Source: Stramenopiles sp. TOSAG23-3 (Eukaryota). Taken from it: DNA of 32,563 bases. Of the stretch, positions 75 through 30,692 are shown piece by piece (position 1 is the stretch's first letter; each line of letters begins with the position of its first letter). A program made the translations under genes and the position numbers. The notes below the pieces were generated by a model that saw only the letters and a list, made by a program, of their open reading frames with translations, was not told the DNA's origin and did not search any database. The DNA lies in assembly GCA_900128585.1 (NCBI GenBank), contig LT642215.1:1-32563 (forward strand), given 5' to 3'.

Positions 75-1208
75 TTAGCGTCTTAAATTACTCATACTCT
101 GAACAATAAACTGGTTTGAAGCATTCATGGAAGCCTTCGAAGCCTCTAACTCTGCACGTAGCTGCTGCAGAGCAAGTCCCTGTTCAAAATTTTTTACCAG
201 GTCTTGCACGTTACTTAATTTTGCATTTTTCTTCTGCCTAGAAGCGCTACATGTAGCGCTTTGAAAGTTATGCTTTTGCCCGCCTTTCTTCTTAGCCCCA
301 TTTTTCCCTCTTTTGCCTTTCCCTGGCTTTCCCCGAGCCCCTCTGTACACGCTCAGCTTCCCCGCTTGCCCGGAGTTCCTCCGCTTGCCTGATCCTTGCC
401 GTCGAGGATCGCGCTTCGAACTGCCACTTGCACCTTCTGTTGCCATTAAACTTTTGGTGTTTATTTGGCATTCAAACTGTGCTGCATATGCCATTGCCTC
501 TTTTAATTTGTTGTAGTCAAACGGTTTGTTGTTTCCACTTTGGTTGCCGTTATTTTGATGAAGAGACGATGCGCTCGAACGCCTTGGAAGCTTAGCTGCT
601 TCGCCCATCCCAGATGATTTTTTTCGTAAAGTGGATAAATCTTGACGAAGTTTTGGAAGGCTGACAGCTTTTTGAAGCGAACTGCTCTCAAACGAGGGTC
701 CTTTACTATGCAACATGCTCTCTACTCCTCTGTACAAGTCTGCGGTACTGTCTACAAAACTTGGTGCAGGTGCTGCAGACGCAGTCTTCGACTTCGACGG
801 CCTTGGGACGTGACCGGGAGAAACTGTTTCACGCTTGAAGGCAGCAATTTTGTTTGGTTTTCCGAACACTAAGTGCTTTTCGCTGTCTTCTATATTGCCG
901 CTAGTGTAAGAACCTCGTTCTTCTTTCGTTCTTGTTCGTTGTATATCTATTGAGGGGGGTACAAGAATGGGCCTTGTCATTCTAGTGTTTGCCTCCGGTC
1001 GAAAGGTTGGGGCGAAGACCCCGTTGGACTCGGTGGCATCAACGCCCCGCTTCCCATACGTTTGCCCGGGCGTGTCACTTTGGCAATTTTCGTTACAATA
1101 TTTTGCATACAAATTATCGTACCCTTCTGGCTGCTGAGGATGTAAGGAGAGCTTCATAGCAGCCTGCTGCATGACGAACGGCGCTCCATTATACAAAAAC
1201 GTAGACAT
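75..1208 (-). CDS. Hypothetical protein: low-complexity basic middle, C-terminal coiled coil
   Basis: Long GC-rich ORF bounded by AT-rich DNA. First in-frame ATG at 1208 (the ORF track begins at a non-ATG codon at 1283). C-terminal helix VQDLVKNFEQGLALQQLRAELEASKASM. No family recognised. Confidence 0.75.
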   Translation of the reverse strand: MSTFLYNGAPFVMQQAAMKLSLHPQQPEGYDNLYAKYCNENCQSDTPGQTYGKRGVDATESNGVFAPTFRPEANTRMTRPILVPPSIDIQRTRTKEERGSYTSGNIEDSEKHLVFGKPNKIAAFKRETVSPGHVPRPSKSKTASAAPAPSFVDSTADLYRGVESMLHSKGPSFESSSLQKAVSLPKLRQDLSTLRKKSSGMGEAAKLPRRSSASSLHQNNGNQSGNNKPFDYNKLKEAMAYAAQFECQINTKSLMATEGASGSSKRDPRRQGSGKRRNSGQAGKLSVYRGARGKPGKGKRGKNGAKKKGGQKHNFQSATCSASRQKKNAKLSNVQDLVKNFEQGLALQQLRAELEASKASMNASNQFIVQSMSNLRR

Positions 1209-1763
1209 TAGAACAGCGCTCCTACCCCGCCCACTGTGTTCAAACAAGAAACAAATCAAACGTCGTTTGAACTTCTCGTTCACAAAACAATAAATATTAA
1301 TTTAACGCGTTAAATCCTTCTTGAAAAGAATGAAATTACTTTCAAACCAATATAATTTATAAAACGGGTAGGAAAGAAGAAAACAGCGAACCCAACGGAA
1401 ACGAGAAGGAGCAGACACCAGAACAAAAGGACAGCATAGGAGCATCTAAAAATTTCCTCAATCCAACTCTCGCTTCTCGCTCAGTCGCTCAGCAGCAGTT
1501 CTCCGTTCTCCCTCAATCATCCAACGACGAGCTTCTTCTTCCTTCTCCTCTATTTTTTATTATGATACAATTATTACATGTATTACAATTTGCTTTTTCT
1601 TTTTTTTTACTCCTCCTCTGCTGAATTCCTGTATTGTATCAAAATATTATCTTTCGCTTATTATAAGAAGAAAACCATTATAAAAATATTTCAATCCGGC
1701 AAACAACTAACGGTAATGTAATGTTCTGATTAGGGTTTTATTGCTATTATTATCTCTTTTTTT

Positions 1764-3319: not shown

Positions 3320-4396
3320 TCAATAGTCATCGTCGATATAATCTGAATTATACTCTACTCGCTGAGGTGCTTTTTTGCTACCTTTGATAACGCCATTGTT
3401 GGCACTACCGGACGCTTTTTCTATTTCGCTTGATATCGTTTCCATGATGCCATTCTTTCCATTCCACACACTGCCCCACTTGTGGTGCACTTCATTCACA
3501 CCGTGAGATTCGCTGGTTCTCGGACCCAACTCGGATCCAGGTGGGTGTTCCACGGCTTTTCTGTCGACTTTTTCTGAAAAATTCGTGTGGTCCACGTCCT
3601 CGAGAATCAAGTCAACATCGTGCACTTCGTAAACTTTCTCTTCTTCAACATTGCCCACGCTGTCTTCGTCGTTTGTGTTCATCTCTAATTTCTTGCGGTT
3701 GTCTCCGATAAGATGCACACTGCTTTCTTCTACCGTTTCCGCATCATCGTCGTCTGTCTTCATCTCCAATTTCTTGCGGTTGTCTCCGATAAGATGCACA
3801 CTGCTTTCTTCTACCGTTTCCACATTATCGTCGTCTGTCTTCATCTCCAATTTCTTGCGGTTGTCTCCGAGATGATGCACACTGCTTTCTTCTACCGTTT
3901 CCGCATCAACGTCGTCTGTTTTCATCTCCAATTTCTTGCGGTTGTCTCCGAGAAGATGCACACTACTTTCTTCTATCGTTTCCACATTATCGTCGTCGAA
4001 AGTTACTTCATACGTAGGAACGGCACGATTTTCAACCAGCTTGGTGATGAATCCTATTTGTCTAGTTTCAAAGGAAGGGGTGGTCGCACTAACACGGTCG
4101 CCGACTTTGTACTGGAAGCCAGTCCTTTCGGTTAACTCTATTCCATCGCCCGTGTCATCTTCGGGAGCGTCGTTCTTTCTTCCTAAATGATAATCCAAAA
4201 ATTCCATCTCGTGGGTCAGTTCCCAATGCAAATCCGCTGCTTTTTTCCGGTCTCTGCGCCAATCCCTTGCTGCTTTGTGATAGTATTTATCATCAACATA
4301 ACGCCATAATCGCCCAAAGTTCGTCAGCAGAGCCCAAAAGATAGGGGCAAACAGAATTAGGAACAGCTCTTTTGCAACCCAGGAGTATTTTCCCAT
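3320..4396 (-). CDS. Membrane-anchored protein with a Tudor/SH3-like barrel followed by 27-aa tandem repeats
   Basis: N-terminal hydrophobic helix ELFLILFAPIFWALL. Tudor/Agenet-like pattern YKVGDRVSA...GFITKL...YEVTFDDDNVETIEESSVHLL. Acidic tail. Confidence 0.8.
   Translation of the reverse strand: MGKYSWVAKELFLILFAPIFWALLTNFGRLWRYVDDKYYHKAARDWRRDRKKAADLHWELTHEMEFLDYHLGRKNDAPEDDTGDGIELTERTGFQYKVGDRVSATTPSFETRQIGFITKLVENRAVPTYEVTFDDDNVETIEESSVHLLGDNRKKLEMKTDDVDAETVEESSVHHLGDNRKKLEMKTDDDNVETVEESSVHLIGDNRKKLEMKTDDDDAETVEESSVHLIGDNRKKLEMNTNDEDSVGNVEEEKVYEVHDVDLILEDVDHTNFSEKVDRKAVEHPPGSELGPRTSESHGVNEVHHKWGSVWNGKNGIMETISSEIEKASGSANNGVIKGSKKAPQRVEYNSDYIDDDY
3674..3997 (-). repeat. Coding tandem repeat, 4 x 81 nt (DDDNVETVEESSVHLIGDNRKKLEMKT)
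   Basis: TTTCTTGCGGTTGTCTCCGA recurs at exact 81-nt spacing, four times. Confidence 0.95.
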
Positions 4397-5139: not shown

Positions 5140-6045
5140 ATGTCGGGGCTTGTTCTACAGCAGTACTTAGAGCCACTGCTGCGGCTAGTTAGAGATGCGC
5201 CCGGTTCGCAGAGGAACAGGTACCGTGTGAAACTCGCAGAGGTTGTATCCGTACTCGCTGGAACAGCCGTGCTGTTTTGTGCACTTGAAGAAGACATGAA
5301 AACGTTTGGATATTTTGTGTACGTTGGACTTTTGTATATGATTTGGTCTTGCGAAGATATGGCATTGTCTCTTTTGGCGGGTTTTATCACCGGCAGCGTC
5401 GGTGCCTTCACGGAGTGGTGGGGTTGTAGCAACAAGTTGTGGAACTGGGTCAGTGCCAATGCTGTGTATCCTGGCGATAGACAAACGGCGTCCTTGTTTA
5501 TGATAGGGGGCGATCGCTATGGCTTTCCTATAGAAGTAGTCATTGCATATGCTGGTGCTGGCTTTTGGATGGCCAGTATATCTCGGGTCATCTTGGAGAA
5601 AGAACACGCGGAACTGGCCCACGGCAAAGGGAACGTTTCAAGCAATGCCCTGCCCTACCGTGTGGTCTCTGGAATCCTGCTTTTGGTGGCCTATTTTGAA
5701 CCGGTGTGCTTGCAATCTTGTGTGCTGCTGTGGGCCGGTATAAATATGACGCTTGGTCTGACTGACCAAGCAAAAATTGCATCGATTTCGTGGGGATGCC
5801 TGGTTGGAGTGAGTGGATTCTTCTTTGAAATTTTTGCGACGGGGGGCATTGCCGACGACTTTGCCGTGTGGCGCTATGATAAACAACGACATCATGAAAT
5901 GGTCCAAAGTAGCGGCACGTTCCACCTCCCTGTGTATTTTGTTAGTACGGCGCCTCACACAGCTATACTCGCGTACGTCGGGACCGGGCTGATAATCTTT
6001 TCAGGCACCTTTCAAATTACCCGTTCGACTGCAAAGACAGCTTAA
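5140..6045 (+). CDS. Polytopic membrane protein with two internal repeats (weak DUF2878/CruF/CrtYcd-like pattern)
   Basis: About 8 hydrophobic segments. Duplicated motif G..G...E........W.[WY]...P....AY.G.G (GAFTEWWGCSNKLWNW/FPIEVVIAYAGAG and GFFFEIFATGG...VWRY/APHTAILAYVGTG). The CDS is secure; the family is tentative. Confidence 0.75.
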   Translation: MSGLVLQQYLEPLLRLVRDAPGSQRNRYRVKLAEVVSVLAGTAVLFCALEEDMKTFGYFVYVGLLYMIWSCEDMALSLLAGFITGSVGAFTEWWGCSNKLWNWVSANAVYPGDRQTASLFMIGGDRYGFPIEVVIAYAGAGFWMASISRVILEKEHAELAHGKGNVSSNALPYRVVSGILLLVAYFEPVCLQSCVLLWAGINMTLGLTDQAKIASISWGCLVGVSGFFFEIFATGGIADDFAVWRYDKQRHHEMVQSSGTFHLPVYFVSTAPHTAILAYVGTGLIIFSGTFQITRSTAKTA

Positions 6046-6405
6046 GTTGAAATAGTGTGTGTTGGCACTTTGCTCAGACGAAGGCCAAACCTCTCAGTGC
6101 AGGGCCTGCGGAGAGAAAAAAATAAGTGTGTGCGAGTGAGAAAAGGTGAGTCTTTCGGCACCGTAAATAGTTTTTTTGAAAATCGGACGCCCTGGCAGGG
6201 GAAGTACGATCGTATGATAGCTGTGATATTTTAATACGATCTCATTAATATTTAAAACTAAGAATTTGTGGTAAAAAATTAATTTAAAAGGCGGTAAGTT
6301 GTAACAAACACAGTGCTCTCGAACAGAAGAATGTTTCCAAATTTACAGTAATTTCAAAGGGTGGTAACGCCACCATCCAAGTATTCAACAACACGGCGCA
6401 ATGAT

Positions 6406-8619
6406 TTAACTCATTTGCATACCCATGGCTTTCAATTGGTCGATTTCTCTCTTCCTTTGGGCTTCTTGTTGCCTTTCCTGTTCGTTTTGGCGCTCGATTT
6501 GCCTTACGCGTTCGGCATCTTGTTCTTGGAACTTCTCTGCTTCTTCAACCATAGAATCAATTTCCTCTTGGGTCAAACGCCCACGGTCGTTGGTGATAGT
6601 TACGTCAGCGGTAGCACCGGTCACTTGATCCTTGGCCGTAACGTGTAGCAGACCATTGGCATCGATATCGAAGGTAACGTCGACTTGGGGAACGTTCCTC
6701 TTGGCGCGTTCGATACCAGAGATGGTAAACTTTCCGAGCATGTTGTTACCATCGGTGCATTGACGTTCACCTTCATATACACATACGTCAACTTCGGTTT
6801 GGTAGTCTTCCTCGGTGGTGTAGGTCTTCGTCTTGCGGACTGGGATAGGGGTGTTCCTCTTGATCAAGGTCGACATAACCCGGCCGGTGGTCTCGATACC
6901 CAAGGACAACGGGGTAACGTCTACCAGCAAGAGGGAAGAAGTCGCAGCGTGGCGCTCGCCACTGAGGATGGCACCTTGAATGGCGGCACCATAGGCAACG
7001 GCCTCGTCCGGGTTGATGGTCTTGCACAAATCTTTGCCCTTGAAGAATTCTTGCAAAAGGGCTTGGATCTTCGGGATACGGGTGGACCCACCGACAAGAA
7101 CAATATCATCAATGTTTTCTTGCTTCATTTTGGCGTCCTTCAAAACGTGCTTGACGGTCTCCAAGCAGCGTTGGAAAAGTTCGTCGTTCAAACTGTCGAA
7201 CTTGGCGCGGGTAACCGTCGTGGAAAAGTCGATGCCGTCGATAAGAGAATCTATTTCTATTGTCGCGGTGGTACTTGCGGACAATTGACGCTTCGCTTTC
7301 TCGCACGCCTGTCTCAAACGCTTCATGGCGCGGGCGTTCTCGGAGATTGGGGACGCCTTTCTGTTCTTGCGGGTGAAGTCGGACTGAACGTGGTTTTGCA
7401 ATACGTTGTCGAAATCTTCCCCTCCCAAGTGGGTGTCACCGGCGGTGGCTTTGACCTCGAAGATACCTTTCTCGATGGCCAAGATGGAGACATCGAACGT
7501 ACCTCCTCCAAGGTCGAAGACGAGGATGTTGCGGACCCCTTCATCGGCCTTCTTGTCGTTCAAGCCGTAGGCAAGGGCGGCGGCAGTGGGCTCGTTAATG
7601 ATGCGCATGACTTCAAGCCCGGCGATGGCACCGGCGTCCTTGGTGGCGGCGCGCTGGGAGTCGCTGAAGTAGGCGGGTACGGTAATTACAGCCTTCTTCA
7701 CCTCGTGGCCCAAGAAGGTCTCGGCGATGCTCTTCATCTTGGTCAAGACCATGGCACTGACCTGCTCCGGGGCGTACAATTTCTGCTCGCCGTCGTGCTG
7801 AACGCTTACCATTGGTTTTCCTTCCTTGGATCGCTCTACGGCGTACTGGAACATCTTGATGTCCTTGGCAACTTTCTCGTCGTCGAAACCGGACCCGATC
7901 AAACGCTTGACGTCGTAGACGGTGTTCTTTGGGTTCATGGACGCGTTGCGCTGGGCAGCGGCACCAACGAATCGCTCTCCATCGTCTGGGCTGAAGCCGA
8001 TTACGGAGGCAGTGGTTCGGGAACCTTCCTCGTTGGCGATGATCTTAACGCCACCGTCTTTCCACACACCGACGCAGGAGTAGGTGGTACCCAAATCGAT
8101 ACCGATGACCGTGCGGTCCTCCGGTGGGATCTCTTTGTTGGCCTCGGCGATTACCTGAAGCTCGTTCTTGGCTTTGGCAAGACCGTCGACAAGGGCTTGG
8201 TTGTCTGCCTCTACCTTCAAGCCGGCCTCGTAGGCGGAGACGGACTCTTCGAACAGTCGGCCTGCGAACTTGGCAGCGCCAAGGCGCAAGAAGCCTTTGG
8301 CCCATTCTGGCTTCATGGCGATGCACTTTTCGGCATCGAGGGCGGCCTTCTTGTGTTCCTTCAACTTCAGGTACGCGGCGGATCGGTTGGAGTAGTACAC
8401 TTCGTTGGTGGGGTCCAGATCGATGGCGTCGGTGAAGCACGATACAGCTTCGCGGGTTTTGCCGGAGGCGAAGGCGGTGTTACCCATGTTCTTTGCTTCC
8501 ACTGCCATCTTCTTGCGTTCGTTCAAAGACATGTTTGCAAACTCTCCCGCCAAGGCGGGGTCGGAGGCAACTTTTTTCTTTCCTCCCTTCTTCTTTCTCT
8601 TGGTGCGTTTAGGCGGCAT
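6406..8619 (-). CDS. HSP70: Hsp70-family chaperone with an N-terminal Hop/STI1-type TPR domain; lid truncated, no EEVD
   Basis: Hsp70 signatures [56 protein letters not shown] and linker [12 protein letters not shown]. Three TPRs at about aa 40-148 ([22 protein letters not shown]). Confidence 0.95.
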
Positions 8620-9322
8620 GGTTGATATATATATCTGTGTGTTCTTCGGTATATAGGGTAAGTGTTGAAATGTAACTAACTTGTTTAATTACTAACTGAA
8701 TTGTTTCTTCCTCTCCGTTATTCTGCAAAGGACTTCCTCTCCGTTTGTAACTGTTAACTACTCCACTCGCTCCAAACCAACTACTCTAACTTCCTTGGTA
8801 TTCACATTCTACATATTTTATTTTTTTAATTTTAAATTCAACAACTATAATACTTGGCTTGAAAAATTATTTATATTATTCATAAATTAATTAATATAGA
8901 AATACCATCTAAATTAATACTTTATTTTAACCAAATTCACTTCTTTCTTCTTCTTTCCTTCTTCTTTTTCCGCCTCGTTGGTTCTCCACCACAAAATATT
9001 AATAAATATTTATTAATATAGACATAGCATAGAGTTCCAAAAAAAACGAAAAGTAAAAGGTAAGTCTATAATAGCATAGCATAGCATTGCAAGCAATCGC
9101 AAAATAATAAACAATAAAAATCACACAAAAAATCTTTCATTAATTAATATCGAAATAGCACAGTAGAATTCATTGATGAAGTCATAAAAGGAATTGAAAA
9201 AAGGAATGGTCCTTAGGCCTGGTCCATCGTATTCTACTGTTCTTTAGAGTAAGAGAAGGTAGAGCTAGAAAGAAAGAGCTATACTAGTAGCGCTACGAGG
9301 ATATATAAAGAAAGAAAGAGTC

Positions 9323-9837: not shown

Positions 9838-11568
9838 CTAACAAGATCGGAAGAGCTGACCCGGCTCCCCTTCTTCGGTGGCTCCAGGGTTTGGTAATCC
9901 CAGCGCCTCTAGGCGCGAGAATATTCTGACACCGTCGTACTCCGATGATCGATCCCCGGCCAACGTGTCCTGGTCACTCGTGAACAATCCTGGAGCGAAC
10001 TGCTCCTTTCCTGGGTCGTAATGCGACCAATTTTCGTTGGACACGTACGGCATATAAGTGTCCCAGTGGAGAATTCCGGACCCCTCCTCCTCCGGCGACA
10101 GAGCTTCCACTACCTCCAGGCCTCCGCACTTCATCAGGATGGCGTGGCCGTTGGCGATGGGGTAACACGGCAGTGACGCAGCGTTCGTCTCCTCCCTCAA
10201 CTTTGTCACCTCCACCGGCTCGGTTCTCTCTCCCTCGCGCGTCCCGACGAGCAGTGACGCTTTGTTCTGGGCGAATTGCCCTCTTTCATTCGTGGCGCGG
10301 AGGTACGTCTCGGCGCTCTGCGGGAACGACGCGCGGCGGGGGCGGGCGTCGTAATGAGGGAACGCCATAGCTTCCACGGCACGGTAACCATTCCACGCGC
10401 CGTGACGCGACATGTTCTCGAGCATTTTCGTCCGAGCGGATAAGAGGTCGTTCTTCTCCTTGGCGAAGAAGGTCTCGGGGGTCTCGAGAGGAGGCAGTCG
10501 CATGAATGGAGCGTTGTACGGTTGCGTTACAACGGAAAACGCATCGATCCCCTTGAAGGTGGCAGGGAGGATGTTTCGACAACACATTATAAGGCCGGCC
10601 GAGTGTCCCATGTAGAAAAGCGTGCCCTCCTTCAACTGGTCTCGCAAAAGCTGCATGTGGCCAACCTCTGAACCGTTCTCCAATCCCTGGCGATCCCACA
10701 TGTTGTGGAACAGCGACATGGTGTATGTGTTCCCTCCCACGAGGTAATACCCCGAGACGCCCTCCAACGTCTCCGCAAGGTTGGCGGGACTCACTGGCCG
10801 GCTGCAGCCGTAGATCGCCTCCCTGAACTCCTCCGCCTCTACGGAGGAAGGGAATTGCATGTCGTCGTCCTCCTTCCCGTCTGGGTTCACGAACTTCATC
10901 GCCGGGAAGCCGTCGTTGCCTTTCTCCCCTCCCTGGTCGCGAACTGCTTCCCATATTCCCCAGCTTAAGTCCCAGCATACGATTCTATCCAGGTTGTAGA
11001 ACCGCATCATACTCCGCATGCTATTCCATACCAGCTTCGCCCGCCACTCCTGAAGGTGCAATTTCCCCACAACCTCCTGCTCCCAGTGCTCGAGCCTATC
11101 GTCATTGGGATCAACGGGGGCCTCGAAGACGAACTCTGTCTTGCCGTTTTCTTGTTCGTTGGCCTCCCTCAGCACGGCGCCCTTGGGCATCCACACCTTT
11201 TCTCCAGACGGCTGTGGCAGCAATAACCCCTCTCCGGCGGTCTTGCCGTCCGCTTTCAGCGGAAGGTGCTTCCTCAGCTCGTCCTCATCCGAGAAAGTGA
11301 CGGCCACGGGCGACGGCTTCCCTCCGACGATAGCATACGTGTCCCAGTTCCAAGTCGTGGCCGACACGTCCACGATCATGGAGCGCTCACCATCTCCCCG
11401 CCTGGCGCGGGTTTCCTCGAGCAGGCTGAGGACCCTGGCCCTTGTGGAGTGAGCGGTGATCGCCTTTCCTCGCACTGGCATCAGGTAAGCCGCCGAGAGG
11501 AGGACGTTGGCGCGTCGCGTTTCCGCGGCAGAGGAGGAGGGGGAGGTTTCCGCCGAAGGAGACGCCAT
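9838..11568 (-). CDS. Peptidase S51 (peptidase E/cyanophycinase, class I GATase-like fold) family protein with large insertions
   Basis: YYLVGGNTY, nucleophile elbow FYMGHSAG and AFPHYD match the S51 motifs GGNT, GxSAG and PHY. Start placed at gccATGg 11568, where GC content rises; an upstream in-frame ATG exists at 11700. Confidence 0.8.
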   Translation of the reverse strand: MASPSAETSPSSSAAETRRANVLLSAAYLMPVRGKAITAHSTRARVLSLLEETRARRGDGERSMIVDVSATTWNWDTYAIVGGKPSPVAVTFSDEDELRKHLPLKADGKTAGEGLLLPQPSGEKVWMPKGAVLREANEQENGKTEFVFEAPVDPNDDRLEHWEQEVVGKLHLQEWRAKLVWNSMRSMMRFYNLDRIVCWDLSWGIWEAVRDQGGEKGNDGFPAMKFVNPDGKEDDDMQFPSSVEAEEFREAIYGCSRPVSPANLAETLEGVSGYYLVGGNTYTMSLFHNMWDRQGLENGSEVGHMQLLRDQLKEGTLFYMGHSAGLIMCCRNILPATFKGIDAFSVVTQPYNAPFMRLPPLETPETFFAKEKNDLLSARTKMLENMSRHGAWNGYRAVEAMAFPHYDARPRRASFPQSAETYLRATNERGQFAQNKASLLVGTREGERTEPVEVTKLREETNAASLPCYPIANGHAILMKCGGLEVVEALSPEEEGSGILHWDTYMPYVSNENWSHYDPGKEQFAPGLFTSDQDTLAGDRSSEYDGVRIFSRLEALGLPNPGATEEGEPGQLFRSC

Positions 11569-12151
11569 GGCAAAATAATTTTTTAAACGTTTGAAACGCT
11601 CAGCAGTTTGATCGAACACACTGGCTTGATTTGTGGGTATGCGTAAAGAATTGAATATGCAGCGCCGACGCAGGCCTCCTTTCCACCAAATTATTTGCAT
11701 TCGATGGATTTTTTGTTCCTATTATTACCGATAATATAATAATAATACGGTATCTTTACCGTACTCCCCTGCTACGTACGGACATGTTCTTTTTTTCGGT
11801 TTCTTCTTCTTCTTCTTCTTCGTGTTGTTGTTGTTGTTAGTCCTATTATATTAGACTATTATTAATATTTTAATCTTCTTAGTCTCTATTATTTCCATGT
11901 TACACGAAGTAAGTGTCTAAATATTTTTTTTTTATTATTATTATTATTTTTTTGAATTTGGATTCTTGATTTTTTGTTGTTTGTTTCTTTGCTTTCTTTA
12001 AAAATTGTGTATCGTCTTTACCTTTTTTTTTTTGTCATTGGATTTAGTAAATTTTGCAAATAAATAAAACATTTGTACTATTGACATTTTTTGTTTACGA
12101 AACAACATAAGAAGGTTTCATTGGCCGACCCACAAAGTCGGTGAATTTTCA

Positions 12152-14082: not shown

Positions 14083-15019
14083 CGTGTCTTTCATCATTCA
14101 TTTTATTTTGACATTTGTTGATTACGTATTATTCCAATAACCATTATATAGACTATTTAATTAGTTATAAAAGTAGTCGTCGATCGATCAACATATTTTA
14201 AATACGAGGAGTCGTCATCTAAATAAATAAAGAGAGCATTGCTTTTTAAATCCAGTAGAGTGTCCCCATCCTCATCCTCGTATTCTCGTATATATTATAT
14301 GCCCTTCCTTCCCTTCCTCTCTCTCTCCCTTTCCCTCTTCTCCCTTCCCCTCTTCTCTCTTCTCCCTTCCCAGCCTTTGTTTGTTTAACTTATTTTTTTT
14401 ATTTTATGAGGTTGAACCTAATCCAAAACGAATGTTTTTTATTTATTACATACTTTGTAGAAAAAGCTTTTAATACTTTTATTTCAATATTATGTCCATT
14501 TTAAATAAGAGTGGTTGGTTTTAACTTGCTATATTATCTTTGAAGATTTATTGTAACAATATATTATTTTAAACTCAAATTTGATTAAAATAACGAATAA
14601 TTTCGTTTCGAGGATAATTAGAATATATATCACTTATATTTTTATAAATTATTCTACATAATTACCCTAACGTTTAGGTATATATGGACTATTCGTATTA
14701 ATAATATAAATTATGTATTTAACTGTTCTTATAAAAATTACTCTTTGTACAAAATAGCTATGATAAAGTGGTGTGAGATATTTTAAATATTGAACAAAAA
14801 AGAAGAAATCAATCACCAGAAGAATTACAAATGAAACAAAGGGGTTTTATTCAAAGAATGATTATTTGCATGGGGTTGATCGATTGAAGTTGTTTGTTTG
14901 TTTGTTGTTTTCGGTGTCTGAAAAGTACGCCGTTGTTTTTATTGTGTTGTCAGGGATTGGTTGATATTACGAACATATTTACACGCACGCACAGAAAGAG
15001 AGGTCAACCGGTTGTAAGC

Positions 15020-17263
15020 ATGTCGTCCAAACTGGTCGCCCAGAGCGAGGATAACTCTGCAAAGGAGAAGAAACCAGATGTGGACGTTAGAATATCTCGC
15101 ACCGGAACGATTAGTATCAAGGGAATAACGGGGTCGCTGGAGGGGGCAAAGCCGAACGCCAAAAAGAAACATTCCATCCGGTCTGCCGTCGCATCCCTTC
15201 GGGGACAAGCCTTGCGACAGTTACGGCAACAGCAAGGCATAGAGGAGAAGGCGCAAGGCAGCAAAAAGAAGGAGCTGCCTAACTTCAGCTTTGCTTCCCC
15301 AAATCGGCTCTCGCAGTACAGCGTGGGCCAGCCTGAGCCAAGCGATATGGAACGAATCGCAAGGCTGACCGCAAAAGCAACTCTGTCGACCCCACCCTCT
15401 CCTGCGCGAAAAGTGAGGTCTCCCATGTCTCCTTCCCGAACGGAGGGAGGGCAAAAGCTGCGGCACGCCGTCGACGTGCTACATGAAACTGTCCTGGACC
15501 AGCGCGCGAGGGCCGAATCTCGAGGCATTACTTTGTCGATGGCCCTGTATCGATTAGAACACAGGGTGCGTGGGGATGGGGTCGGTGCCCACGCCCTGAC
15601 GAGGGTTCGTGAGGCACTACGAGAGATGGATCAACAGCGAGAAACGCTTTTGCAGCAGCTCGCCGATGAACGGCTGGCAGGTAAGAGCTACCGCACGAAA
15701 ACGAGTGTGAAGAAGCTGATGGTTTCCTGGAGAAACACGCGCACACGAGACGCGTTCAACTTGTGGGAGAACCTAGTCGTTGTGCACAAAGCAAACCAAA
15801 TGCAAAGTATACTGAGCAAGAGCAGGGAATCGCTGATCACGAGGCTCAGGGACCAGTTGCAGGCACACACGTCGCACAGGGTCTTGGTCGCATGGAAATC
15901 CTACGTAAAAACCTCAATAAAAGAGCATGCGTGGGAAGAGAAAATAAGGGAGGACCATCAAAATCACACCGAAATGATAACGCGAAGGGCTATTTTGAGA
16001 TTCAGGCACGGCCAAATATCCCGATGCTTCAATTCATTTGCGACTAACGCCAAAAATGAGAAGGAACGCAGGGTCCGCGTCAAACGAACCCTGGCAAAAT
16101 GGACCAAGCGCACCCTGTACAGGTGCTTTTCGGCTATGTCCGGTTATGCGGCTTCGAGAAAACGGAAACGGAATATCTGCCATAGAGTCATCGCAAAGGT
16201 TGAAAACCAAGCGGCGGCTGCTGCAATGGGAAAATGGCGCAGCTTCATCATGGAGGACGCAAAGATGCGAATGAGCAAAGAAAGGTTGATAATCAAACTC
16301 TTCAATGGTCTAACAAACAAGCATGAAATCCAACAAATATTCACGCTCGTGGTCGCGCAGGTAAAACAGCTGATGGAAGCGGAAAATGCCCTCCTCTTTT
16401 TGCACAATCCCCGCAAAGAAAAGCTCTACACAAAGTTAATGTCCCTTGGCAGTGACGGTGAGGAAATGTTCGAAGAGTTTTTTATCCCGGACGACCTGGG
16501 GCTGACTGGGGAGTGCTTCCAAGAAGGGCAAAATTTCTGTGTCGCCGATGCTTACGAGGATTTGCGGTTTGACAGAAGCATAGACGATCGGTTGAATTCT
16601 CGCACAAAGCAATTGATGGTGCTTCCAGTTCGTACGAAAGCGGGACAGACTCTAGGGGTGCTACGGATTATCAATAAGAAGAATGGCATGGTGTTTAAAA
16701 CGACCGACGCAAACTTGTTGGGCCAATACTGTGACCAGCTAGCAGTTGCAATCCAAAAGGTAGAAAACATCGAGCGCGAAGAAAGGTGGAAAATTGAAAA
16801 GGTCCTGGGGTGGATTCGCAACGGCCTGTTGTCACGATCTTGGACGGCCTGGCGTAATGTATGGGAAGCCGCACGCCTTCGAAAGAAGCAATCAAAGAAA
16901 TGCCTGCTCATATGGACCCGAAAATCAATATCAAAATCGTTCCGATCTTGGTCCAGTTTCGTGGAAAGAAGAAAGAAACAAAGAGATACGGTTTGGAGAT
17001 CACTTCATAGAATGGGGAAAACCCTGCTCAGCAGTGGGTTTAAAACGTGGCACTACAACGCAATGCGAATTAAAGCGTTGGCGGAGACAAACCTGCTGTA
17101 CGACGAACTGAAGCAACAGAAAGAGGCGTACACGGAACAGATCATACACCGTGCCTTGATGCGAATGCAACATGCAACGATCGCAAACTGCTTCTTCACT
17201 ATGGCTGAGCACGCTCGAGAGGCAAAAGAACAAAAGGTTCGGGTTACGCGCACGTTGGCCCGA
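15020..17263 (+). CDS. Large Sfi1-like (W-motif) repeat and GAF domain protein, 5' part; interrupted by an inverted fragment
   Basis: First ATG at 15020. Repeated [AS]F..W...V helices (AFNLWENLV, AMGKWRSFI, SFRSWSSFV, GFKTWHYNA). PDE-type GAF: GLTGECFQEG..VADAYEDLRFDRSID...TKQLMVLPV...LGVLRIINKK..F...D. The TAG at 17264 coincides with the inversion junction. Confidence 0.85.
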
Positions 17264-17427
17264 TAGGATTTGTTGAATATCTTTCTTACCCGCAAGCCCA
17301 TTCGACAGTTTTAAAATAAGTTTTTCTTTCTCGACTCTCATTTTGGATTCTTCCATCATAAAGGAGCGCCATTTCCCCAATGCTGCCGCCACGGCTTGGT
17401 GCTCAACTTTAGCGCATACCCTAACGC
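17261..17427 (-). other. Inverted fragment of the same gene (probable assembly or amplification chimera)
   Basis: The minus strand reads VRVCAKVEHQAVAAALGKWRSFMMEESKMRVEKEKLILKLSNGLAGKKDIQQILS. This is a paralogue of the plus-strand HRVIAKVENQAAAAAMGKWRSFIMEDAKMRMSKERLIIKLFNGLTNKHEIQQIFT (~16180-16345). It abuts the N gap. Confidence 0.85.
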
Positions 17428-17486
17428 NNNNNNNNNNNNNNNNNNNNNNNNNNNNNNNNNNNNNNNNNNNNNNNNNNNNNNNNNNN
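17428..17486. other. Assembly gap (N run)
   Basis: Run of N seen directly. Confidence 0.99.
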
Positions 17487-18482
17487 TGTGGTCGAATATC
17501 TAGGTCACAGTTGAGTGCCGGATTCCACACATGGGAGCGCTTCGCTCTGCATGCACAGCTTGAGCAAGCTAATCATAAAGATAAAATTACCCGAGCCGTA
17601 GGCGTCTGTGGGGGCCTTGCAAAAGTTCAAACGCTAACGGATGTCTTTGCGCTTGTAAATGAAAAAATTCCCTTGTTGCTGGAGACTGAACGGTGCACTT
17701 TATACGTGGCAGATCACGGACGTGAGTTGCTGTGGTCGGCAAACCTGCAGTCTGGAGAGGAAGGTGAAACGACCGTCCAAATACCATTCGCTCGGGGCCA
17801 AATGGGTCTGGTGGCCCAAACAGGCCAAAGCACGTATGGCCCAGGGAGGGATGGTGACAACCACCATTACGTGCCCATCAGAAATGTAAGGGATGATGTT
17901 CTGGGGGTCTTGGACGTGGCATGCGGTTCTTCCCAGAGCGCCGAGGCGAACGAAGAGATGCTGGAATTGGCATCGGCCGTTGCAGCTATGGTTGGCGCGG
18001 CAATTAACCACCAGGGTCTCCTCGACGACATCACGATGATGAACGAGCAAATGCACAGTGCCACATTGACTGAACAGAAAATGGCGTCAATTATTACTTG
18101 GCTTTTTGAAGTTATTGGTAGCGGGGATGGGCAAGAGCACAAAGCAGAGATTCAAGAAATGCGGGATACGTTTATTAGGGCTCATTACGGAATAAACATG
18201 AGCAATTCGCCCCAAGGGGCTGGCAGTCTAAGGGTCGCGAAAGATAGTGGTGTTGCTGCTGAGTTCCGACTGGCTGATATGGACGAGCAATCCATTGAAG
18301 GCTCAGGATACGCCCAAGGACAATCGTCTGAAAGGGCAGAAGATTCTGGCGCGCCAACGTGGACTGAAGCGTTTGCATCCATCGATACAAATAAAGATGG
18401 CAACATATCACCAAGTGAGTTTGCAAGGTGGTACAATGATCGACAGGCAAACCGAAGAAGCGATGGCCCTGCGTATGTGTGA
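17487..18482 (+). CDS. 3' part of the Sfi1-like/GAF protein: divergent GAF and a C-terminal EF-hand
   Basis: AGFHTWERFA W-motif. GAF-like LLETERCTLYVAD..RELLWS...IPFARGQMGLVAQTG...VPIRNVRDDVLGVLDV. Canonical EF loop DTNKDGNISPSE. Joining it to the upstream part is inferred. Confidence 0.8.
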   Translation, partial: CGRISRSQLSAGFHTWERFALHAQLEQANHKDKITRAVGVCGGLAKVQTLTDVFALVNEKIPLLLETERCTLYVADHGRELLWSANLQSGEEGETTVQIPFARGQMGLVAQTGQSTYGPGRDGDNHHYVPIRNVRDDVLGVLDVACGSSQSAEANEEMLELASAVAAMVGAAINHQGLLDDITMMNEQMHSATLTEQKMASIITWLFEVIGSGDGQEHKAEIQEMRDTFIRAHYGINMSNSPQGAGSLRVAKDSGVAAEFRLADMDEQSIEGSGYAQGQSSERAEDSGAPTWTEAFASIDTNKDGNISPSEFARWYNDRQANRRSDGPAYV

Positions 18483-18835: not shown

Positions 18836-19987
18836 TCAAAGCCCAAGCCTCTTTTCACACCGAGCCCGAACAAGGCGAGATCCTTCCAGGTCCATAAGTA
18901 TTCTCCTGCTTGACTGTAAACGATCACTGTATCCACAAAGAGCCAAGGTCTCTCGCTTGTCCCAATCGATTTGAACAGGCTTGCCTTTAAGCGGTACAAG
19001 TAATGGAAACCCAACGTTTGTTTTTGCGCCGCTGCCCATGTTATAGTCCATGCGCTGCCAAAATTTGTCGCATTCACTTTGGTTGACAACATACGTTTCC
19101 GCAGCGACCCCTATCCTATTGAATTTCCCGGTCGCTCCGCTAGTAAAGAGCAAAATGTCGCCAGGGTTGATGTGGGCAAAAATGCGAGAATACAGGCCTT
19201 TTGCAAAGCCCCAAAGATATGTGCCCAGTGACGGGACTTCTTCCTCAAGGGTATGGTCGTTGTAACCCAATACTCCGGTCGGAACCATGAACAGTTGCCG
19301 GTCCCCACCCGTAGCCTTCAGTTTTTTATCGTTTTTCCACCTTGCGACTAATTCCTTGTACGTTTCTTCCTCCCGCTTCTTTGCTTGCGCTTCAAAATTA
19401 ACTTGCAGCTTTCGTCTTGGAGCAGCTTTACCCGATGGGTCTTTTCCTTTCAAACGGCGAGACTGGCGGTACCCAACCCTAGCAGTTCTTGAAACCAATT
19501 GCCTTCGGGGCCGAGAAGAGCCAGACAGCTTCCTCGCTTTGCTCCGCGGGGTGTTGACCATCGTACTCCTCATCGCACCTATGCCCAGACGCTCCAGCTC
19601 TGCTTTGTTTTCTTCGATATTTTTCAGGCGCTCAAGTTCGTACTGCGACAACGTGCTTTCCCCCCCTTCCTTTGTCGTTTTTGTTGCCGGGGCCCTCTGC
19701 TCCTTCTTCCTTACAACTCGCTTCTTTGGGCGTCCTTTGGTCAACAGTGCCCAGTTCCCTTTTTGCCACGAGGCAGGGTTCAAGTTTACTCGAGACTGCG
19801 AGCCATCGTCATCCCAGACAACTGTCCACCAGTACTTCCCTGATGATTTTGAGTCCCTATTAATCAATCTCCCTGTGTACCACTCTTTTTTGTTCCACTT
19901 GTAGGAGAATTTGGAGTCTTGCCTTAACGATGAAATGACAGAGTGAGCCGCATCAACGACCGTCTGTTTGGGGGCTGTTTTCGGCAT
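18836..19987 (-). CDS. Putative chromatin protein: Tudor-like domain, LSxYE..R..NI..N helix, C-terminal EVE/PUA-like domain
   Basis: WYTGRLIN...WWTVVWDDDGS (Tudor-like), LSQYELERLKNIEENKAELERLGI, RQSRRLKG, and YLWGF...INPGDILLF...FNRIGV (EVE/PUA-like). The CDS is secure; domain calls are by eye. Confidence 0.8.
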   Translation of the reverse strand: MPKTAPKQTVVDAAHSVISSLRQDSKFSYKWNKKEWYTGRLINRDSKSSGKYWWTVVWDDDGSQSRVNLNPASWQKGNWALLTKGRPKKRVVRKKEQRAPATKTTKEGGESTLSQYELERLKNIEENKAELERLGIGAMRSTMVNTPRSKARKLSGSSRPRRQLVSRTARVGYRQSRRLKGKDPSGKAAPRRKLQVNFEAQAKKREEETYKELVARWKNDKKLKATGGDRQLFMVPTGVLGYNDHTLEEEVPSLGTYLWGFAKGLYSRIFAHINPGDILLFTSGATGKFNRIGVAAETYVVNQSECDKFWQRMDYNMGSGAKTNVGFPLLVPLKGKPVQIDWDKRETLALCGYSDRLQSSRRILMDLEGSRLVRARCEKRLGL

Positions 19988-22620: not shown

Positions 22621-24039
22621 TCATTGGAATTGACTCATTTCCGTCTGTGGTCCATCGGGTGGGCGGCCCCTTGGGGACGCAAACTGGTTCCTCTTTCCGA
22701 CGAAATCCACCGCCCCGCCTCCGCCCCCGTCTGCTTCGTACTGGTTGCTGGCCCTTGCCGACTGCGCTCGGGGTGGCCTGGTGTTGTTGTGGTTGAATTT
22801 GGAAGAAAATGGAGGGACAGGGGGCTTTTTCCAAGGTCGAGCCGTTTGGGGTGCTTGAGGATGCTGGCGACTAACGAATTGATTCTTGCTCGTTGATGGT
22901 AATCGAGCGGACCGACTACCACTGCGGTTGCTCCTGGCTGACCGTGGCGGCTTTCGCTTTGCCAACTCTAACAGCCTTCCTAATTCTTCCTTTCTACCTT
23001 GATCAGAAAGCATCGACCCAAAACCTTTCTCGTCGCCGTCGCTTTCATCGTTTTCGTCTTTGAACTGCACCGTCTTTTTCCCACTTTTCTTCTTCTTTCC
23101 TTGGGCCCTCCTCGTCTTCTTCCGCTTGTCCTTGCCAACCAAGGCGTTTTCCGCGTCGTCGTCGTCGCTATTGTTCTCTGAACCGCTTTCGTCGTCATCG
23201 GAGTAGTAATCGTCTTCGCTGCTGGATTCTACCCGCCTGCTCTCCCTGATGCGCTCTTGGGAACGCGCAAGCCATACTTTTTCGGAGCGCCAGTGCCACT
23301 GCGATGTCACCAGCGCTGCCGACGAAACCACCATGAGGGCCACACCACTCCAAAACATGCCAATGGAGTACGATTGCTTCGCGCATTCAGCCGCATTGGA
23401 CTGGTGGTCTACGTATTTGCAAATAGTCGCGTTGCCAGCCCTTTCATGCTCTGGTAAATCTATGTGCATCTTTGCGCTAATGCTACCCTGGTCGCCGTGG
23501 CACTTGTCCGGGAAGCAACAGCAGAAGGACATGACAGCCGGGACAGCAATAAGACTCAGCTGCACGACAGCAGCTGGGACCGCCACAAAAGAGGCCAGGG
23601 ACGCCAGGGCCATGCAACACCTGCTGGAGCAGCAAACGCTCAGAACTGTGCACACAATTGATACTCCCAATAGACCCTGGGGCGCCCAGGACATGTATTG
23701 GTTTATCCACACTCGCCCATGCAAACCAAGTGCTACACTAAGCTCAGGAATACACAGGCAAATCGAAATTACCCCGAGCAGCGACGAACAATATACATGC
23801 TGTGGGGATGGAGCTCCAAGGACAGGATCAGCGGTTCTCCACACTTCTAAAGCGCCTTCTGGCAACGGCTTGCGTGCACGGCTAGCTTTTCGCTGTCCAT
23901 CGGATTTGTTTCTACTCTTCCCCAAAGTTCTGTACTCTACCCTCTGTTGAAATTGTCTGTTTCGAGTGGCCGCTTCTTTTTTACTCCGACCCTTCCACGA
24001 GTATGCGCGTCTCATGACGCTTGGCAAATTTGTGTCCAT
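22621..24039 (-). CDS. Four-TM, Cys-rich membrane protein with a long acidic then basic disordered tail (tetraspan-like topology)
   Basis: First ATG at 24039. Three closely spaced TMs, a Cys-rich loop (FCCCFPDKC...C...C), a fourth TM, then SSSEDDYYSDDDES and a Lys/Arg-rich tail. Confidence 0.75.
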   Translation of the reverse strand: MDTNLPSVMRRAYSWKGRSKKEAATRNRQFQQRVEYRTLGKSRNKSDGQRKASRARKPLPEGALEVWRTADPVLGAPSPQHVYCSSLLGVISICLCIPELSVALGLHGRVWINQYMSWAPQGLLGVSIVCTVLSVCCSSRCCMALASLASFVAVPAAVVQLSLIAVPAVMSFCCCFPDKCHGDQGSISAKMHIDLPEHERAGNATICKYVDHQSNAAECAKQSYSIGMFWSGVALMVVSSAALVTSQWHWRSEKVWLARSQERIRESRRVESSSEDDYYSDDDESGSENNSDDDDAENALVGKDKRKKTRRAQGKKKKSGKKTVQFKDENDESDGDEKGFGSMLSDQGRKEELGRLLELAKRKPPRSARSNRSGSRSARLPSTSKNQFVSRQHPQAPQTARPWKKPPVPPFSSKFNHNNTRPPRAQSARASNQYEADGGGGGAVDFVGKRNQFASPRGRPPDGPQTEMSQFQ

Positions 24040-24374
24040 CTTAGAACACCCCGACCAATCGGTCCCTGTCGTCACTTTTTACGTGCAAAACCTTTGGATT
24101 TGGCTGACTTTTGTTCTCTTTTTATACGTCTGAATGAACAGCAAACATTTGGTATCCTAGTCGGTGTAAAACTTGTAACGATGGTTCCAATTATTAATTT
24201 CAAACAAGTGATTGAAGGAAATTCTTCTTCTGTTGTTGGTTGTTGTTGTTACGAGGTTCCTTCGTACTTCTTCGTATTTCGTTGTTGTTGTTGTTTGTTG
24301 TTGGTGGTGATTCAATTTTATGTTTTGATTTTATATGAATTCGTATTTTTTATTAGTCCTACTCGTACTTCGTA

Positions 24375-28717: not shown

Positions 28718-28875
28718 TAAAATTTATGTACTGCGAACAGAACTCTACTGGAGTGATTTTGGTAATCAATATATCCTTGTTACTTAGTCTTGACTATATC
28801 ATTTCCATATGTACTCAAGTAACATATACTTTGTTGAATTGTACCTTTATTTCTTTCCTTCCTTTTCAGAGGACA

Positions 28876-29622: not shown

Positions 29623-30692
29623 CCTTACAATAGCTGAATAAAATTTTGTTTACGTTTAGGGTTTATCGTTTTTGTTGAGAACACAATTTTTTCAATGTTC
29701 ATGCGTACTGCCATGAAATACTTTGTTCGTTAACTTTATAATGTAATTCAGTTCAAAGTTTGTCTGTTTTACTCTTTGTTCTTCTAATTTAAATAAGAAG
29801 TGGAATAGCTCTATGAGAGAAGTCATCTGTTGATGTTGTGTACCTGTTTACGTAGTTATATAATATTTGATAAAATCGTTATACATTTTTTAAAAAAGAA
29901 AAAAGAAAGATATTTTAAGAAAAGTTGAGATGCTATTACTATGTACAGTAATAATAATCTACCTCGTAATGTCCAGTAGTAGAGATATTCGAATACGTGT
30001 CCACCTCTATAACCCTAACTATAACCCCATTATTACATATATTACATAAGCCTACAGAACAGAGAAAGACGACTAATCGTCTTTCTATTTCTTCTCCCTT
30101 CTTGTGGATTCTCCCTTCTTCTTTTCTTCTTCTTCATTTGCTAGACTAGACGACTAATTGCTTCATTTTTATTTGTGACAGGCACTCCTCTTGCTATTTC
30201 ATCATTGTTAGTCTGTTTATATACCATTACAACGTATAATAAAGTGATGAGAGACGACGACAACAAACAGGCGACACCGTTCGAAAGAAAAAGACCGATT
30301 GCCAAATCACACCAGGAGGTAAAAGAAAGCAATAGCTTCAGTAAGAGCAAAGAAGTATACGATTTCTTCTAGTACTACTACGAGGACTAAACTAGTCTAT
30401 AAAATATATAAACAATAAATTATTTTATTTTTTTTTTTTTATTAATAATAATTTTTTTTTTCAATCAACAAAACAATGAATAAAAAATCATCGAATGAAA
30501 CAACAATAAAAAATAAAAGATCAAAATAAAAAGACACAAATGAAAATAAAAGGAGAAGTTACATAAATCAATCGATTAATCTTCATAATTTGTAACCATA
30601 TATTTATTCTTTCTCAAGTGCCAAACGAATCGGCTGAATACCATCGATTGAAATAGTTTTTGTTGGATCAAGTAGACGACCCAAACTCGCTG

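Follow-up and report, generated by a model that had tools for sequence, protein, structure and literature searches.

Hsp70 networks are normally wired by separate adaptors, such as Hop and CHIP, which grip the EEVD tail of the chaperone. The carboxylate clamp of TPR domains is given, in the available excerpt of PMC2939883, as K5 and N9 of motif 1, N6 of motif 2, and K2 and R6 of motif 3. Truncated cytosolic Hsp70s of plants and green algae (Hsp70T) are devoid of the EEVD, and the excerpt available on them mentions no TPR fusion (PMC10687569). A combination of an Hsp70-type nucleotide-binding domain (NBD) with a TPR thought to contact Hsp70 and Hsp90 is described for Leishmania HRP4 (LmjF.29.1240); according to the excerpted account, its NBD is N-terminal and divergent, its TPR is C-terminal, it has no substrate-binding domain and it is judged non-canonical (PMC4943205). 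A literature search returned no paper characterizing the architecture of an N-terminal TPR followed by an Hsp70, and the main text of a paper on oomycete domain fusions (PMC2705460) contains neither Hsp70 nor TPR. Kinetoplastid HSP70.a, considered as a candidate for this architecture, proved wrong; a Leishmania review groups it with Grp170.

Here we analyze a protein of this architecture, TPR-Hsp70, encoded in a window of 32,563 nucleotides (the whole stretch of DNA under study), which is contig LT642215.1 of Stramenopiles sp. TOSAG23-3 (assembly GCA_900128585.1).

An expressed, intron-less gene

The protein is encoded by a single open reading frame (ORF) of 737 aa on the minus strand, closed by a TAA at 6406-6408, and an in-frame stop lies 72 nt 5' of its ATG. 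The features of the locus, all on the minus strand, are given below.

6265..8670, minus: mRNA, minimum extent, unspliced, with the poly(A) site at about 6265 (metatranscriptome contigs)
6406..8619, minus: coding sequence, 737 aa plus TAA stop
6265..6405, minus: 3' untranslated region, 141 nt
8530..8619, minus: polybasic N-terminal leader, aa 1-30, predicted to be disordered
8134..8526, minus: TPR domain of three motifs with capping helix, aa 32-162, Hop-TPR1-like (Pfam, AlphaFold2, homology)
8491-8493, 8479-8481, 8386-8388, 8296-8298 and 8284-8286, minus: codons of the clamp residues K43, N47, N78, K108 and R112, respectively (codons verified)
8110..8133, minus: TPR-ATPase linker EIPPEDRT, aa 163-170, 8 residues (AlphaFold2 boundaries)
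6955..8109, minus: Hsp70 nucleotide-binding (ATPase) domain, aa 171-555 (Pfam, Hsc70 alignment, AlphaFold2)
6916..6933, minus: hydrophobic interdomain linker LLLVDV, aa 563-568 (Hsc70 alignment)
6571..6915, minus: beta substrate-binding domain, aa 569-683, with family-specific R580, E603, Y606 and D611 (alignment, AlphaFold2)
6409..6570, minus: single long C-terminal helix, aa 684-737, corresponding to lid helices A and B and ending in MGMQMS

A 2427-nt contig from a poly(A)-selected metatranscriptome run (X10) spans 6265..8670 unbroken, and the loose end of 21 T that it carries before 6265 on the plus strand is a poly(A) tail, 141 nt past the stop. Contigs from the other RNA runs start at 6268 (X17), 6271 (X1) and 6268 (X18), so that all four begin within 6265-6271, and that of X1 extends to 8736 on the 5' side of the gene. 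The RNA matches the DNA collinearly up to its poly(A) tail, which excludes an intron as well as a hidden 3' exon that might restore a lid or an EEVD, the latter a possibility that the sequence-only reading had raised against itself. The junction between the TPR and ATPase domains is bridged in 4/4 RNA runs examined; the ORF is therefore not a chance frame, and the unbroken ORF and single-polypeptide fusion first read from the DNA are confirmed at the level of RNA. In total, the gene is present in 20 sequencing runs of 12 studies, 14 of the runs being on record as RNA. TPR-Hsp70 is thus encoded in the nucleus of a marine protist by a gene that lacks introns and is expressed.

That the fusion is an artefact of mis-assembly, of mis-joined neighbouring genes or of a decaying pseudogene is scarcely credible. 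No support for it was found, the odd joints being confined to run X18, where three have sides of 20-21 letters and ends that are not splice-like; joints of this kind often derive from the sequence of other organisms and, given these short sides and ends, they were treated as foreign Hsp70 reads. Against an artefact, the ORF is covered from end to end by individual contigs in independent RNA studies, and more than 100 proteins of many lineages have the identical architecture. An orthologue, L002, lies on an unrelated contig in a different genomic context, likewise as a single ORF, of 733 aa. Between the two orthologues, pN (0.07-0.28) is well below a saturated pS (0.77-0.93) in every region, indicating that all parts are under purifying selection. 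Identity to L002 is lowest in the TPR, the fastest-evolving part (61%), and reaches 70% in the leader and 85-93% in the Hsp70 domains.

Domain architecture and the carboxylate clamp

Pfam places HSP70 (PF00012) at aa 171-724 with E 1.3e-221, covering profile positions 1-544 of 599, and both TPR_1 and TPR_2, each above its cut-off score, at aa 43-72. A single TPR domain is present; Pfam detected no STI1/DP domain, TPR2A or TPR2B in the 737-aa protein, which excludes its identity as Hop. In the AlphaFold2 model of the whole chain (pLDDT 87, pTM 0.76), seven helices at aa 32-162 make up three TPR motifs (six helices) and a capping helix. The ATPase domain and the beta domain come next and, towards the C-terminus, a single helix of 53 residues (aa 684-736). 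Superposition of the model on Hsp70 structures in the ATP-docked state gives 1.8-2.2 A, and aa 1-20 are predicted to be disordered (pLDDT 43-44). Together with the Hsc70 alignment, these data bear out the domain order deduced from the translation, namely a polybasic N-terminus, three TPRs, a complete ATPase domain, a linker and a beta substrate-binding domain.

The closest solved relative of the TPR is human Hop TPR1 (1elw), with E 2.4e-24 and an ungapped alignment across 109 residues. When compared with the domains of full-length Hop, the TPR scores 85 bits with TPR1, 60 with TPR2B and 31 with TPR2A; Tom70, Toc64, SGT, RPAP3 and PP5 are further clamp TPRs matched by sequence. K43, N47, N78, K108 and R112 fall in ungapped register with the clamp of Hop TPR1. 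Among 107 relatives these residues are kept in 103, 101, 105, 106 and 106 proteins, respectively, and all five are invariant in a 60-row family alignment, so the K-N-N-K-R clamp first spotted as short motifs stands at each position. The clamp alone fixes neither the partner nor a preference for Hsp70 over Hsp90, since clamp TPRs occur where partners and roles differ.

The TPR of protein phosphatase 5 packs on its own catalytic domain. It is conceivable, but in our estimate unlikely, that the TPR studied here likewise works chiefly on its own Hsp70, regulating or autoinhibiting it in cis, with the binding of an EEVD tail switching the ATPase or substrate cycle on. The short, 8-residue linker between TPR and ATPase would suit such an arrangement, as would a whole-chain pTM that suggests a fairly defined placement of domains and the occurrence of the PP5 TPR among the matches. 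The C-terminus of the protein is not acidic, however, and so offers nothing to fill the clamp in cis. As EEVD binding would still be needed, cis regulation would modify docking onto the EEVD tails of other chaperones rather than replace it.

Substrate cleft, lid and the TPR-Hsp70 family

The Hsp70 part matches Hsc70 best (698 bits), ahead of BiP (616), Ssb1 (612) and mitochondrial Hsp70 (527). In the Hsc70 alignment, the residues that we take to be catalytic or phosphate-binding in Hsc70 (D10, K71, E175, D199, T204 and D206, in its numbering) fall on D175, K238, E343, D369, T374 and D376, which are invariant in 60/60 rows of the family alignment, and the beta domain pairs with Hsc70 394-509. 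Since neither the catalytic residues nor the hydrophobic linker nor the substrate pocket is missing, this part of the protein appears to be a functional chaperone driven by ATP. The proposal of a co-chaperone-type TPR domain fused to an Hsp70 in one polypeptide is accordingly upheld by junction-spanning transcripts, a clamp-type TPR and intact catalytic residues.

Around the substrate cleft, the family differs from other Hsp70s. Position 580 is R or K in 121/125 members and mostly G elsewhere, position 606 is aromatic in 117/125 and mostly N elsewhere, and position 611 is D or E in 119/125 and mostly L, T or S elsewhere. In a strict scan for positions separating the family from other Hsp70s, against a very mixed comparison set, just 3 positions passed, and the targeted comparison of the cleft told more. 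The family-specific charged residues around the cleft hint at a specialized client set, which docking onto EEVD tails leaves unaccounted for.

The cleft residues at 580, 606 and 611 bear on a further reading, which we likewise consider unlikely: the clamp could be a targeting or adaptor module that recognizes acidic C-termini on non-chaperone proteins or in some cellular structure, placing this Hsp70 at a particular site or on a particular class of clients and aided by a basic leader with affinity for nucleic acid, ribosomes, the nucleus or acidic membranes. A specialized client spectrum would fit such a role, TPRs of the clamp type that mainly serve other roles also turn up among the sequence matches, and the polybasic leader is conserved between the orthologues and recurs (at least five K/R in the first 20 aa) in 41/107 relatives. 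The remaining 66 lack a strongly basic leader, which therefore is not central to the family; moreover, the nearest solved domain is, by a clear margin, Hop TPR1, a known binder of the Hsp70 tail, and no non-chaperone ligand candidate is known.

The protein terminates in ...KAMGMQMS, without the GGMP/EEVD tail, as the sequence-only reading had reported, and the same MGMQMS ending is found in relatives P0002 and P0003 and in the L002 ORF. Homology with Hsc70 reaches Hsc70 residue 543, after which 22 more residues remain, and the Pfam match, stopping at profile position 544 of 599, does not extend to a complete helix A-E lid. That reading had also held the lid to be missing, with only helix A and part of B left. 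The lid is indeed shortened, although not wholly gone, since the 53-residue helix is long enough for both A and B. In the model, helices A and B are retained; the missing parts are the bundle of helices C-E, the disordered tail and the EEVD. The absence of an EEVD is a family rule (0/107 members have an EEVD-like C-terminus), which fits the idea that self-binding is avoided. Lid length follows a different pattern. The window protein (P0001), P0002 and P0003 end 37 residues past the beta-domain core, whereas in 91/125 of the members used for the trees the lid is still long, with a tail of at least 50 residues, and the oomycete and most other members, at 750-790 aa, have a full lid. Loss of the lid is thus a side feature of the window's clade and not part of the family design.

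In three free trees, this short-lid clade is placed beside P0045 and P0022, both with a full lid (support 96, 97 and 94), and stands apart from a green-algal short-lid clade. In an AU test, a tree holding all 11 short-lid rows together lay 11.2 log-likelihood units above the quick tree (p-AU 0.715). The short-lid form may therefore go back to one lid loss or to two: the free trees split the short-lid clades, and the AU test accepts a joint tree.

Although the protein had at first been taken as unusual, it belongs to a large conserved family with automatic database names. The fusions form one clade within the cytosolic-type Hsp70s, with FastTree support of 100 (137 rows) and an IQ-TREE SH-aLRT of 100 (46 rows), relative to outgroup sequences from a representative-sequence search whose matches were mostly tandem or fused Hsp70s; the window protein lies inside the clade in both trees. 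Oomycetes and green algae have the architecture, as do many marine protists, and none of the named matches with full architecture is from animals, fungi or land plants. Named members include Albugo laibachii F0WHV3 (which carries the database name 'Hsp70-Hsp90 organising protein'), the SDRG/SPRG entries of Saprolegnia, and proteins of Pythium and Aphanomyces, as well as Mesostigma viride Mv12302 and a Pyramimonas MMETSP transcript; oomycete pathogens of plants and fish are thus also represented. In the ESM Atlas, one TPR+HSP70 cluster scored 0.95, with Chlorophyta commonest, and a Bacillariophyta-rich cluster scoring 0.81 is a lead only. As judged from these sequences, the family is already in the databases under automatic names, and the truncation of the lid is clade-specific.

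Proposed docking and comparison with known systems

Taken together, we favour, with a probability of roughly 0.6, the interpretation that TPR-Hsp70 is a cytosolic-type Hsp70 paralogue whose Hop-TPR1-like clamp docks on the EEVD tails of canonical Hsp70 or Hsp90. By gripping the EEVD at the C-terminus of its partner, either a canonical cytosolic Hsp70 or Hsp90, the clamp would tether a second Hsp70 motor straight to the main chaperones without Hop. Having no EEVD of its own, the protein would dock on others and would not be gripped, via an EEVD, by itself, by Hop or by CHIP. In the window's clade, where the lid is cut to helices A and B, the holding of substrate would probably be looser. We infer the docking, the partner and the effect on substrate kinetics from the features described above.

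A chaperone with its own gripping domain and its own tail lost would amount to a one-way plug-in, able to join others but not joinable via an EEVD. If docking is true, the family offers a natural system in which Hsp70-Hsp70 or Hsp70-Hsp90 pairs cooperate on one client without Hop. As full-lid and short-lid versions coexist, the family could also show how lid length tunes the machine, and its occurrence in marine RNA-labelled runs from many studies places the gene among those that common marine protists actively use for proteostasis. On a broader scale, the family might be an old, Hop-independent form of chaperone coupling, building two-motor Hsp70-Hsp70 or Hsp70-Hsp90 assemblies with a charged cleft for special clients, which arose near the eukaryote root and was repeatedly lost. 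This wider picture is tentative and somewhat doubtful; an origin near the root could be read from the distribution of the architecture, which is present in stramenopiles, green algae and further protists but absent among the named full-architecture matches from animals, fungi and land plants.

Several known systems resemble the TPR-Hsp70s in part. Leishmania HRP4 shares the combination of NBD and TPR, but the excerpted description sets it apart, with the domain order reversed. Hsp70T is, like TPR-Hsp70, a cytosolic-type Hsp70 without EEVD. The fungal ribosome-bound Ssb is likewise without EEVD, but it has no TPR, and Ssb1 scores below Hsc70 (612 versus 698 bits). Oomycete and green-algal TPR-Hsp70s share the architecture, the invariant clamp and the absence of EEVD and belong to the same clade, differing in sequence (43-46% identity over aa 1-330). 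Canonical Hsc70/Hsp70 (HSPA8, HSPA1A; 3c7n_B, 1yuw, 7kw7_C) has in common with the window protein the ATPase domain with its catalytic residues, the linker, the beta domain and the start of the lid. By comparison, the window protein has an added N-terminal TPR and basic leader, family-specific cleft residues and a lid that ends after helices A and B, with neither the Gly/Met-rich tail nor the EEVD; the EEVD-bearing Hsc70 anchor falls outside the TPR-Hsp70 clade. Finally, TPR1 of Hop/STI1 (1elw, 7kw7 chain E) is the best sequence match of the TPR and has the same three motifs and capping helix. Hop, however, is built of three TPR and two DP domains (TPR1-DP1-TPR2A-TPR2B-DP2) and has no ATPase, whereas here one TPR1-like domain is mounted on a full Hsp70.

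Transcription and conservation of the gene

P0001, the TPR-Hsp70 protein of the window, starts at an ATG with an in-frame stop 72 nt upstream and no intervening ATG.

6406..8619, minus strand: TPR-Hsp70 ORF, a single unbroken frame of 737 residues

This stretch was found in 20 listed runs (14 recorded as RNA) from 12 studies. Contigs from four RNA runs (X1, X10, X17 and X18) were aligned to the window and are read as evidence of presence and continuity, not of expression level. In X10, a poly(A)-selected run, a single 2427-nt contig is collinear with 6265..8670 and carries 21 T's on the plus strand before 6265, which represent a poly(A) tail 141 nt past the stop; contigs in the other runs start at 6268 (X17), 6271 (X1) and 6268 (X18). 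The fusion proposed in the sequence-only reading is borne out by contigs that bridge the TPR-ATPase junction (8110-8170) in all four runs, and the 3' end has no further exon whose splicing would supply a lid or EEVD. No insertions or deletions relative to the DNA are listed in these contigs; three joints, confined to X18, have a short side of 20-21 letters and non-splice ends, and joints of this kind usually derive from other organisms. The gene is expressed. An artefactual fusion is effectively excluded.

A related metagenome contig with a wholly different gene neighbourhood (L002) encodes a 733-aa single ORF with the same MGMQMS end. Synonymous sites have reached saturation between the L002 gene and that of P0001 (pS 0.77-0.93). 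Non-synonymous divergence is low throughout: pN comes to 0.07 for the beta domain, 0.11 for the ATPase domain, 0.18 for the C-terminal helix, 0.21 for the leader and 0.28 for the TPR. Each region of P0001, its leader and short tail among them, is therefore under purifying selection.

Other ORFs of the window were also compared with Pfam. One frame of 923 aa (24687-27458, minus strand) combines PX, CrtC N-terminal lipocalin, Lipocalin_9 and polyprenyl synthetase domains, by its domain matches an unusual fusion of lipid binding and isoprenoid synthesis. Two adjoining plus-strand ORFs, 14894-17266 (790 aa) and 17343-18482 (379 aa), each contain a GAF domain; they may represent a tandem pair or one gene interrupted by an intron. 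No Pfam match at E 1e-5 was obtained for seven further long ORFs (301-620 aa):

75-1283, minus strand: unmatched ORF
3320-4396, minus strand: unmatched ORF
5140-6045, plus strand: unmatched ORF, hydrophobic and membrane-like by eye
9838-11700, minus strand: unmatched ORF
18836-19987, minus strand: unmatched ORF
22621-24075, minus strand: unmatched ORF
28726-29637, plus strand: unmatched ORF

Domain layout and the Hsp70 core

An AlphaFold2 model of P0001, built with 60 family sequences as input, is confident (mean pLDDT 87, pTM 0.76) and, together with Pfam, gives the following layout.

First 20 residues: disordered start (AlphaFold2)
aa 32-162: seven helices, comprising three TPR motifs and a capping helix (AlphaFold2)
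aa 43-72: TPR_1 and TPR_2, above Pfam cut-offs
Next: linker of 8 residues from TPR to ATPase domain (AlphaFold2)
Next: ATPase domain, then beta substrate-binding domain (AlphaFold2)
aa 171-724: HSP70 (PF00012), profile 1-544 of 599, E 1.3e-221 (Pfam)
aa 684-736: one continuous helix (AlphaFold2)
Window 6787-6882: family-specific cleft residues aa 580, 603, 606 and 611 (comparison with other Hsp70s)

The modelled Hsp70 part superposes on ATP-bound, domain-docked structures (BiP-ATP 5e84, 2.1 A; Ssb 5tky, 1.8 A; DnaK 4b9q, 2.0-2.2 A) and poorly on undocked states (13-27 A). Its scores, 698 bits to bovine Hsc70, 677 to Chlamydomonas HSP70A, 616 to BiP, 612 to Ssb1 and 527 to mitochondrial Hsp70, assign it by sequence to the cytosolic type. 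The catalytic and phosphate-binding residues of Hsc70 (D10, K71, E175, D199, T204 and D206) align with D175, K238, E343, D369, T374 and D376, invariant in 60 of 60 rows; the hydrophobic interdomain linker is LLLVDV and the central substrate-pocket residue V610 is retained, so that ATPase, linker and cleft look intact. All tested core features of an Hsp70 are present, yet the protein is not a canonical cytosolic one, as EEVD is absent and the lid incomplete.

The sequence-only reading had described it as having no lid or EEVD. The absence of EEVD and of the Gly/Met-rich tail stands; the lid was understated. Homology to Hsc70 stops at Hsc70 residue 543, and because 22 further helical residues follow, helices A and B are both present in length, only the C-E bundle missing.

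Several cleft positions distinguish the family. Position 580 is R/K in 121 of 125 TPR-Hsp70 members and G in 68 of 102 other Hsp70s; position 606 is aromatic in 117 of 125 and N in 65 of 102 others; position 611 is D/E in 119 of 125 members, and arch position 603 is E in 85 of 125. Such charged and aromatic residues, lacking in other Hsp70s, hint at a distinct client preference.

A family of TPR-Hsp70 fusions

Among the best 120 matches to residues 1-330 of P0001, most have the same TPR and Hsp70 make-up. They include oomycete proteins (Aphanomyces, Saprolegnia, Pythium, Globisporangium and Albugo, one Albugo member being auto-named 'Hsp70-Hsp90 organising protein'), others from Mesostigma, a streptophyte alga, and Pyramimonas, a prasinophyte, and many from marine metatranscriptomes. 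In ESM Atlas clusters with TPR and HSP70, Chlorophyta are commonest in one case (score 0.95) and Bacillariophyta in another (0.81, a lead only). P0001 belongs to a large, conserved family whose members are found in databases under automatically assigned names and which appears to be unstudied.

FastTree, run on 239 Hsp70 cores, places every one of the 125 TPR-labelled rows in a single 137-row clade (support 100), whose 12 other rows lack the simple TPR pattern used for labelling; the clade lies among cytosolic-type Hsp70s and is separate from both the BiP clade and the Hsc70 anchor with its EEVD. An IQ-TREE mixture model on 67 rows recovers the same clade (46 rows, SH-aLRT 100).

Of the L003-L080 metagenome loci, most align over the Hsp70 part alone (aa ~170-715, 51-59% identity), in some cases on long contigs; these are ordinary Hsp70 genes from other organisms or from viruses. 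High-scoring plant entries (Papaver, Mikania and Juncus; P0004, P0009, P0011, P0013, P0017, P0079 and P0117) of 900-1200 aa contain Hsp70 units that are extended or repeated in tandem, and seem to be products of tandem-gene fusion or of merged gene models.

Lid length varies: beyond the beta-domain core, 91 of 125 labelled members carry at least 50 residues, a full lid, and the remaining 34 carry fewer. P0001 and its relatives P0002 (76% identity) and P0003 (74%) all end 37 residues past the core, in ...QLK(A/S)MGMQMS, and green-algal sequences belong to a second short-lid group. Free trees split the two groups, placing the P0001 clade with full-lid P0045 and P0022 (support 96, 97 and 94); in the AU test, a tree uniting all short-lid rows scores 11.2 log-likelihood units better than the quick tree (p-AU 0.715), and the lid may have been lost either once or twice. 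Several green-algal short-lid members (P0018, P0033, P0036, P0052, P0057, P0061, P0068 and P0086) have acidic or aromatic ends such as ...GDDY, ...DEDDM, ...EGTD and ...GYMD, which might act as weak pseudo-EEVD ligands of a TPR clamp. Among 107 members, 41 start strongly basic, with at least 5 K/R within their first 20 residues, and 26 open with an M-[APG]-[PR]-type motif; the leader is recurrent without being universal.

The clamp, putative docking and known systems

A search of all solved structures with residues 1-169 put human Hop first (full-length chain, E 7.5e-49), followed by RPAP3, SGT, Tom70/71, PP5 and CHIP; among Hop domains, TPR1 scored 85 bits, TPR2B 60 and TPR2A 31. Isolated Hop TPR1 (1elw) aligns over 109 residues ungapped (E 2.4e-24). 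Its clamp (K8, N12, N43, K73 and R77, the numbering reportedly given in the 2000 crystal-structure paper) lands in this register on K43, N47, N78, K108 and R112, the five positions that the sequence-only reading had picked out. They agree with the carboxylate-clamp rule K5N9-N6-K2R6 as given in PMC2939883. Among 107 full-length relatives they are kept in 103, 101, 105, 106 and 106, respectively, and all five are invariant in the 60-row alignment; this fixity stands out because the surrounding TPR is the fastest-evolving region of P0001 (61% identity to L002). By sequence, it qualifies as a co-chaperone domain of the carboxylate-clamp kind. None of the 107 members has an EEVD-like C-terminus.

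The clamp would most likely grip the EEVD C-terminus of a canonical Hsp70. TPR1 and TPR2B of Hop bind Hsp70 tails, and canonical Hsp70 is favoured as partner because the P0001 TPR resembles these two; Hsp90 would be the alternative. A rival reading is that the clamp targets acidic C-termini other than EEVD and another, by analogy with PP5, that the TPR acts in cis to regulate the ATPase of its own chain. Under the docking reading, whose core we consider reasonable, P0001 would be tethered to the main chaperones without Hop and, having no EEVD, would neither bind itself nor be open to capture by Hop or CHIP via this motif. Substrate exchange is probably faster with the shortened lid of its clade, by analogy with work on lid-truncated DnaK; the effect may be modest because helix B, covering the cleft, remains.

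In full-text literature covering few subscription journals, no description of an N-terminal-TPR Hsp70 was found, nor does the main text of an oomycete domain-fusion paper (PMC2705460) contain one. A survey of 'truncated Hsp70' in plants and green algae names TPR, in its accessible text, only for Hop and CHIP, and its supplementary tables may list green-algal members (PMC10687569). A Leishmania review groups HSP70.a with Grp170 (PMC4488524). Leishmania HRP4 has an Hsp70-like NBD followed by a TPR at the C-terminus and lacks a substrate-binding domain (PMC4943205). P0001 is not a Hop, having a single TPR domain and no DP domains.
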